Both the position numbers and the translations under genes were made by a program. A stretch of 407 bases of DNA, taken from assembly GCF_003334335.1 (NCBI RefSeq), contig NZ_QOWQ01000197.1. One strand, 5' to 3'. Positions 1 to 407 of the stretch are shown one piece after another; positions within the stretch are counted from its first letter, which is position 1, and each line of letters starts with the position of its first letter. A model generated the notes under the pieces. The model made no database searches, was not told the DNA's origin, and was given only the letters and a program-made list of their open reading frames with translations. Source of the DNA: Escherichia coli. GTDB lineage: Bacteria; Pseudomonadota; Gammaproteobacteria; Enterobacterales; Enterobacteriaceae.

Positions 1-407
1 ATCATCACGCCAATGGAGCCGATACGGGATGTCTGGGTAACCAGCCGTCGGGAGCAGGCCGACGCCAGCAGCATGGCTGCAGAACAGGCCGTGTCATTGC
101 ACAGTGCCCAGACCGGCTTCTGCTGACTAAGTCGGTAAATCATGTCAGCACAGTCAAACGCACCGGCGGCCTGCCCGCCCGGACTGTCAATGTCCAGCAG
201 TACACCCCGCACCTGGCTATCCGCCATTGCCTGCTGAAGACAGGCGACAATGCCGTCATAGCCTGTCATTCCGGAAAATGGCCGCATACCCCCCAGCCGG
301 TGCACCAGCGTGCCTGTCACCGGCAGTACAGCAATACCGTTCACCACCCGGTAAACACGGGCCGGTCGTTTACCTCCGGCCATGTACTCGTCCGTTTCAG
401 CCAGCAT
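1..407 (-). CDS. Phage prohead (head maturation) protease, peptidase S49 family, lambda gpC-like; partial CDS (C-terminal part continues beyond position 1; N-terminus may lie beyond position 407)
   Basis: The minus-strand frame with codons at 407-405 down to 5-3 is open for all 135 codons. The translation contains the blocks RVYRVVNGIAVLPVTGTLV, RPFSGMTGYDGIVA, GVLLDIDSPGG-AGAFDCAD, KPVWALCND-CSAA-LLASA-SRRLVTQT and IGSIGVMM. From memory these align closely with lambda gpC (…SYQVMNGIAVLPVSGTLV…QPYSGMTGYNGIIA…GILLDMDTPGGMVAGAFDCAD…KPVWALANDMNCSAGQLLASAASRRLVTQTARTGSIGVMM…). Codon choice is typical of enterobacterial genes (CTG, CCG, GGC, GCC). The opposite strand shows only short interrupted ORFs. 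Confidence 0.9.
   Translation of the reverse strand, partial: MLAETDEYMAGGKRPARVYRVVNGIAVLPVTGTLVHRLGGMRPFSGMTGYDGIVACLQQAMADSQVRGVLLDIDSPGGQAAGAFDCADMIYRLSQQKPVWALCNDTACSAAMLLASACSRRLVTQTSRIGSIGVM
81..83 (-). other. Codon for the predicted nucleophilic serine of the S49 protease (Ser109 of the window translation, in the motif N-D-T-A-C-S-A-A)
   Basis: Plus-strand aga at 81-83 is TCT (Ser) on the minus strand. It sits in the block ALCNDTACSAAMLLAS, which aligns with the lambda gpC block ALANDMNCSAGQLLAS. As I recall, the Ser in that block (Ser166) is the proposed catalytic residue of gpC. The assignment rests on remembered homology, not on computation. Confidence 0.5.

Follow-up and report, generated by a model that had tools for sequence, protein, structure and literature searches.

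A probable internal segment of a phage 21/lambda-type head maturation protease gene in Escherichia coli, with the predicted catalytic serine inside it and the putative general base encoded beyond it

Results

Location and reading frame of the protease segment

The window, that is, the whole 407-nucleotide stretch of Escherichia coli DNA analyzed here, carries on its minus strand part of a gene for an S49-type head maturation protease and scaffold protein; the features recognized in it are collected in Table 1. Translation of the minus strand from position 407 to position 3 yields 135 sense codons with no stop (MLAETDEY...GSIGVM), and the product is MLAETDEYMAGGKRPARVYRVVNGIAVLPVTGTLVHRLGGMRPFSGMTGYDGIVACLQQAMADSQVRGVLLDIDSPGGQAAGAFDCADMIYRLSQQKPVWALCNDTACSAAMLLASACSRRLVTQTSRIGSIGVM. 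An intact run of 135 codons had already been reported in a first-pass annotation, which did not name the strand, and is confirmed here for the minus strand. The GC content given there (about 61%) agrees with the values obtained for the full window (60.7%) and for positions 3-407 (61.0%), and the codons that it assigned to Ser109 (TCT) and Lys97 (AAG) are correctly placed, both on the minus strand. In the E. coli genomes that match the window exactly and in phage PhiR5_1, the window corresponds to nucleotides 160-566 of a gene of 1506 nucleotides, and residue n of the window product is residue n+53 of a protein of 501 amino acids. Since the window begins 53 codons into the gene, the first Met of the window is internal. 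Ser109 and Lys97 are numbered below by the window, and all other residues by the full protein unless the window is named.

Table 1. Features of the 407-nucleotide window, in window coordinates
Feature	Position	Strand	Basis
S49 head maturation protease/scaffold gene, codons 54-188 of 501	3..407	-	Translation, exact matches, PHROG 53, 65% protein identity to lambda gpC
GSIGV motif, window residues 130-134, full-protein 183-187	6..20	-	Conserved S49 block downstream of the nucleophile
Ser109 (TCT; Ser162 of the full protein; lambda Ser166), predicted catalytic nucleophile	81..83	-	SppA alignments, 151/151, model
Lys97 (AAG; Lys150 of the full protein; lambda Lys154) in KPVWAL, leading into the nucleophile strand	117..119	-	Alignments, 147/152
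SPGG motif, window residues 75-78, full-protein 128-131	174..185	-	Aligned with NSPGG of both SppA structures
Antisense open frame, not a gene	3..407	+	Substitution pattern, no conservation

Two frames are open from end to end in the window, minus 407 to 3 and plus 3-407, which share the same codon register, and stops occur in the other four. At least one end-to-end open frame was found in 8.6% of mononucleotide shuffles of the window, so that an open frame alone is weak evidence at the given GC content. A comparison with phage 21 is more telling: eight codons differ within the window, and in the minus-strand frame these amount to seven synonymous changes and one non-synonymous change (S94R), whereas in the plus-strand frame the same eight differences change seven amino acids. 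It is therefore the minus-strand frame that is under selection, and the differing codons appear to reflect purifying selection on that frame. Homology (PHROG 53, Pfam S49 and the SppA structure) decides for the minus-strand frame as the real one. A search of the window against Rfam gave no match at E <= 1, neither promoter-like nor terminator-like sites were found in it, and the repeats that it contains are short and at chance level.

Family assignment

The window covers the N-terminal two-thirds of the protease domain, and the remaining third is encoded outside it. In profile searches, PHROG 53 "head maturation protease" was matched with E = 4e-72 by the window product and with E = 1.5e-224 by the full protein, and TIGR00706 (SppA_dom) with E = 1e-15 and E = 5e-32, respectively. 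Pfam Peptidase_S49 (PF01343) matched window residues 93-135 (E = 9.6e-9), the match being clipped by the end of the window. The solved chain of Bacillus subtilis SppA (3rst) was matched with E = 1e-6 by the window product and with E = 1.7e-16 by the whole protease domain. A match to the ClpP profile CLP_protease (E = 3e-4) is weaker than the S49 match. The full protein misses the cut-offs of the SppA equivalogs, with 65.4 bits against 311 for TIGR00705 and 35.7 against 746 for NF008195. Because these scores lie far under the NCBIfam cut-offs for SppA, the protein is a relative within S49 and not an SppA orthologue, and details of its mechanism could differ from those of SppA for that reason. 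The gene family is itself already known, as lambda gpC, phage 21 gp5, PHROG 53 and MEROPS/Pfam S49.

Beyond the window, PHROG 8399 "head scaffolding protein" matches residues 294-372 of the full protein, and PHROG scaffold families match two to four stretches of its C-terminal part. PHROG 21 "portal protein" is another family matched by the protease domain (E = 5e-26 with the window). Two of the representatives, P0009 (844 aa) and P0150 (698 aa), carry the protease domain at residues 411-701 and 347-631, respectively, and together with PHROG 21 they suggest that other phages have portal-protease fusion proteins.

Distribution, gene context and intactness

A search of 5426 complete E. coli genomes found the window at 100% identity in 10 chromosomes, and matches to it, mostly at 95-99% identity, in 1934 genomes. 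Homologues of the full gene are present in 2032 of the 5426 genomes, at up to 7 places per genome and at 10 places on plasmids, and in 1866 genomes the gene is represented at a coverage of at least 80%. Some of the places cover the gene only in part, which means that truncated copies exist. Phage PhiR5_1, for which E. coli C is the listed host, is 100% identical over the window, and gene 5 of phage 21 is 98% identical at the nucleotide level. A literature search for a publication on the provenance of PhiR5_1 found none.

The state of the gene beyond the window was read from records with an identical segment (five exact-match E. coli genomes and PhiR5_1) or a near-identical one (phage 21). In all seven the gene is 1506 nucleotides long and, on translation, has no internal stop (7/7). 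Moreover, the cluster Nu1-A-W-portal-protease-D-E-FI-FII-tail is complete in each of these records, and the neighbours carry no pseudogene flags. The rest of the gene is thus uninterrupted in these records and the neighbouring genes are unflagged, and the earlier view that an intact head protease argues against heavy decay of the prophage is supported by them. In all seven 21-type records and in lambda, the gene is flanked by the portal gene on one side and by the genes for head decoration and the major capsid protein on the other.

The names under which the gene is annotated vary and include "S49 family peptidase", "capsid protease/scaffolding protein", the loosely used "head-tail preconnector protein Nu3" and "Phage capsid and scaffold". 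According to its annotation, the protease gene starts with GTG and shares 11 nucleotides with the end of the portal gene (L001 8842-8852), an overlap to be expected of head genes that are coupled in translation. Near the head module of the exact-match strain STEC17-183, a single pseudogene flag occurs, on a DUF1327 gene of the lysis region that is truncated (L001 1612-1857); the head and tail genes of this strain are all unflagged.

The predicted catalytic serine and the conserved blocks

The blocks that define the family were said in the first-pass annotation to be preserved, and indeed GIAVLPV.GTL, D.PGG, KPVWAL, CSA and GSIGVMM are common to the window product and lambda gpC. The alignment of the serine at 81-83 with the nucleophile of lambda gpC, proposed in the same place, also stands. 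This serine corresponds to lambda Ser166 and to the nucleophile positions of SppA: Ser162 aligns with residue 92 of the 3rst chain (Ser147 of B. subtilis SppA once the offset of 55 is added) and with residue 384 of the 3bez chain (Ser409 of E. coli SppA, offset 25). Conservation was assessed on 150 representatives sharing at most 50% identity with one another, together with two SppA chains, and Ser162 is invariant among these relatives (151/151). Ser166 of lambda gpC is reportedly an experimentally supported nucleophile (Medina et al. 2010). A literature search for Ser166 or S166A in lambda gpC returned nothing relevant. A search for Ser147 and Lys199 of B. subtilis SppA gave no direct match, the K199A mutation and the two-monomer site being described in PMC7568657.

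Two further blocks surround the serine. In the SPGG motif, Gly130 and Gly131 are invariant (152/152), and the Gly-Gly turn of this motif is common to S49 and ClpP enzymes; as in ClpP and SppA, the turn presumably gives a backbone NH to the oxyanion hole in the window protein. The GSIGV motif is aligned with GSLGV of B. subtilis SppA and with GSIGI of E. coli SppA, and its residues are almost invariant (Gly183, 150/151; Ser184, 148/151; Gly186, 150/150).

Two conserved lysines

Lys97, which lies in QQKPVWAL, had been aligned with the lysine of the lambda block DIKPVWAL, and this alignment proved right, the lambda residue being Lys154. In SppA, Lys97 aligns with Lys135 of the B. subtilis enzyme (KKPIY) and with the lysine of GKPVV in the E. 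coli enzyme, not with Lys199. A weak alignment places the same KPV motif in enoyl-CoA hydratases, a group of non-proteases. Under its full-protein number, Lys150, the residue is conserved in 147 of 152 relatives and is invariant in an alignment of 66 sequences.

In the exact-match genomes, the full gene encodes Lys214 (SGAHKVDGN) at the position of the general base, about 52 residues past the serine. In an ungapped stretch of the alignment, Lys214 is matched by an Ala at residue 144 of the 3rst and 4kwb chains (position 199 by the offset of 55), and we read this Ala as K199A, a mutation in the active site that inactivates B. subtilis SppA (PMC7568657). The spacing between serine and lysine is 52 residues in both the phage protein and B. 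subtilis SppA. Lys214 is conserved in 143 of 147 relatives; among the few that deviate are the K199A crystal construct and the C-terminal domain of E. coli SppA. In E. coli SppA, only the N-terminal domain reportedly gives the catalytic lysine, Lys209 (Wang et al. 2008), and the C-terminal domain lacks a lysine here because Lys209 of the N-terminal domain serves.

Lys97 and Lys214 are similarly conserved, and conservation alone cannot separate them; the assignment is therefore made by homology to SppA, for which mutants and solved structures are available. By this homology, Lys97 is not the general base, a point that the first-pass annotation had left undecided, and it is Lys214 that matches SppA Lys199. 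Lys97 is most likely structural, a feature of the fold at the turn before the nucleophile-bearing strand, because it is aligned with SppA Lys135 and because KPV is also found in enoyl-CoA hydratases. Lys214 would be residue 161 of the window product, and the window ends at residue 135, so that the putative general base lies 26 codons past window position 1. With Lys214 beyond its end, the window holds only half of the predicted catalytic dyad.

Predicted structure

Residues 1-293 were modelled with AlphaFold from 66 sequences, at a mean pLDDT of 94.3. In the model, Ser162 is located at the junction of a strand (152-161) and a helix (163-169), which is the usual site of the nucleophile in this fold; Lys150 stands just ahead of the same strand, and Lys214 falls in a long irregular stretch (201-224). 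Thus, the serine singled out in the first-pass annotation maps both onto the nucleophile positions of the SppA structures and onto the strand-helix junction of the model. A Foldseek search of the PDB gave B. subtilis SppA (4kwb and 3rst) as the best matches (E = 2e-19, TM 0.83-0.86, rmsd about 2 A), followed by E. coli SppA and then by ClpP (TM about 0.7). The fold of the model is accordingly of the ClpP/crotonase type and closest to that of SppA. Searches by sequence and by fold found no structure of a phage S49 head protease in the PDB copy used.

Discussion

We consider it highly probable that the window is an undamaged stretch from the interior of the gene for the head (prohead) maturation protease in an E. 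coli temperate phage or prophage of the phage 21/lambda type, with a predicted catalytic dyad of Ser162 and Lys214 and with Lys97 most likely in a structural role. Since family and role are already established, the importance of the finding beyond annotation is small. The gene is among the commonest prophage genes of E. coli, occurring in about 35% of the complete genomes. Its practical bearing lies in the dyad: with the predicted catalytic serine inside the window and the predicted catalytic lysine outside it, the nearby conserved Lys97 should not be labelled the general base. In addition, the undamaged segment is identical to the one in an isolated phage, which speaks mildly for a functional, not a decayed, prophage head module around it.

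There is next to no probability that the coding sequence is the plus-strand frame 3-407 instead. That frame has no stop over 135 codons and corresponds in the full context to an ATG-started ORF of 191 amino acids on the strand opposite to the gene (L001 8857-9432), and two fully open frames arose in just 0.2% of shuffles; nonetheless, family matches were obtained for the minus-strand product alone, and seven of the eight differences from phage 21 alter amino acids on the plus strand versus one of eight on the minus strand. The homologous stretch of lambda has a stop in this frame, the register has nine stops over the whole gene, and the frame is unannotated in the records examined (E. coli, PhiR5_1 and phage 21). 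Coding by plus-strand 3-407 was rejected on the substitution pattern and the missing conservation, and the open frame appears to be a by-product of the codon usage of the sense gene. The coding segment being that of the minus strand, the gene might still be disrupted elsewhere in its own genome, as the remnant of a decaying cryptic prophage that makes no functional protease. The window shows only 135 of the 501 codons, and homologues are very common in complete E. coli genomes and in some places partial. We regard such a remnant as improbable, however, in view of the stop-free gene of 1506 nucleotides within a complete head cluster in all five exact-match genomes and PhiR5_1, and of the seven-to-one ratio of synonymous to non-synonymous codon differences from phage 21.

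It is very improbable, too, that Lys97 acts as the general base, which would place the entire Ser-Lys dyad inside the window. The conservation of Lys97 and its location just 12 residues ahead of the serine would fit such a role. Yet its counterpart in B. subtilis SppA is Lys135, whereas it is Lys199 whose Ala mutant is inactive, and Lys214 falls exactly on position 199 with the spacing of 52 kept. Furthermore, KPV aligns weakly in hydratases that have no protease function and is kept in both domains of E. coli SppA, although the catalytic lysine of that enzyme, Lys209, is said to be in the N-terminal domain only and at another position. A separate question is whether the phage branch of S49 works exactly as SppA does. 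His191 is conserved in 147 of 150 gpC-like relatives and is encoded three codons past window position 1 (L001 9412-9414); its position is occupied by Ser in B. subtilis SppA and by Ile in the C-terminal domain of E. coli SppA. For an archaeal SppA, that of Thermococcus kodakaraensis, Ser162 and Lys214 are reportedly essential and His191 supportive (Matsumi et al. 2006). It is conceivable, if unlikely, that Lys97 and His191 take part in catalysis or in a switch confined to the procapsid, for example, through a cross-subunit Ser-Lys dyad tuned by His191.

The protein consists of an N-terminal serine protease domain of the S49 type (SppA-like, with the ClpP/crotonase fold) and a C-terminal Nu3-like scaffold region. 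By analogy with lambda gpC, it may assemble together with the portal, the scaffold and the major capsid protein in the procapsid, into which the scaffold-like C-terminal region would bring the protease. The protease would then cut the scaffold, the portal and itself, whereupon the shell could mature and take up DNA. Lambda C, the viral protease, not only cleaves itself but also modifies the capsid, portal and FII proteins (PMC12617516), and is an essential protein (PMC10695390). For SppA, catalysis by a Ser-Lys dyad is described (PMC9360617), with two adjacent monomers contributing to each active site (PMC7568657). Catalysis in the phage protein is likewise predicted to depend on a dyad, with Ser162 as the nucleophile and Lys214 as the general base, and the active site is probably split between neighbouring subunits, Ser162 coming from one and Lys214 from the next. 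If the two halves of the active site come from adjacent subunits, the enzyme would be active only once oligomerized. We infer the proteolytic activity, the substrates and the cross-subunit site of the 21-type protein from these better-known relatives.

The SppA enzymes (3rst and 4kwb of B. subtilis; 3bf0 and 3bez of E. coli) share with the phage protein the fold, the position of the nucleophile and the Ser-to-Lys spacing, and the chemistry of the dyad is presumed by homology. Identity to the phage protein is only about 24%, however, and the latter has no membrane anchor, possesses an N-terminal extension of 70 residues, a C-terminal scaffold domain and the conserved His191, and would act on capsid proteins instead of signal peptides. 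ClpP (S14, Ser-His-Asp) has the superfamily fold and the layout SPGG ... KP ... Ser in common with it; on the other hand, the match to ClpP is weak by both the Pfam profile and the TM score, ClpP structures rank under all SppA chains, the position of the lysine general base is filled in the phage protein, and the best matches are to S49.

Among the closest known systems is gp5 of phage 21 (GenBank OL657228, CPT_21_05; M81255, gene 5), annotated as "capsid protease/scaffolding protein". Its gene is likewise 1506 nucleotides long and lies between the portal and head-decoration genes. S94R is the one amino-acid difference within the window, and over 501 amino acids the protein identity is 95%. 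Of the 26 amino acids that differ overall, most belong to the linker or the C-terminal scaffold part, and nothing functional is implied by them. Lambda gpC (S49 peptidase, NP_040584, with the nested scaffold Nu3) is more distant, with 65% protein identity over the window and 58% overall. Its gene order is the same, and Ser166, Lys154 and Lys218 of lambda correspond to Ser109, Lys97 and Lys214, respectively. A nested scaffold coding sequence is annotated in both phage 21 and lambda. The two types differ in length, 439 amino acids in lambda gpC against 501 in the 21-type protein. A C-terminal module of about 45 amino acids (..EAKGREQLA..L...GMTVE.AR.IL..) is present in three tandem copies in the 21-type protein and in one copy in lambda gpC/Nu3. 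The three-copy stretch is encoded outside the window, at L001 about 9760-10250.
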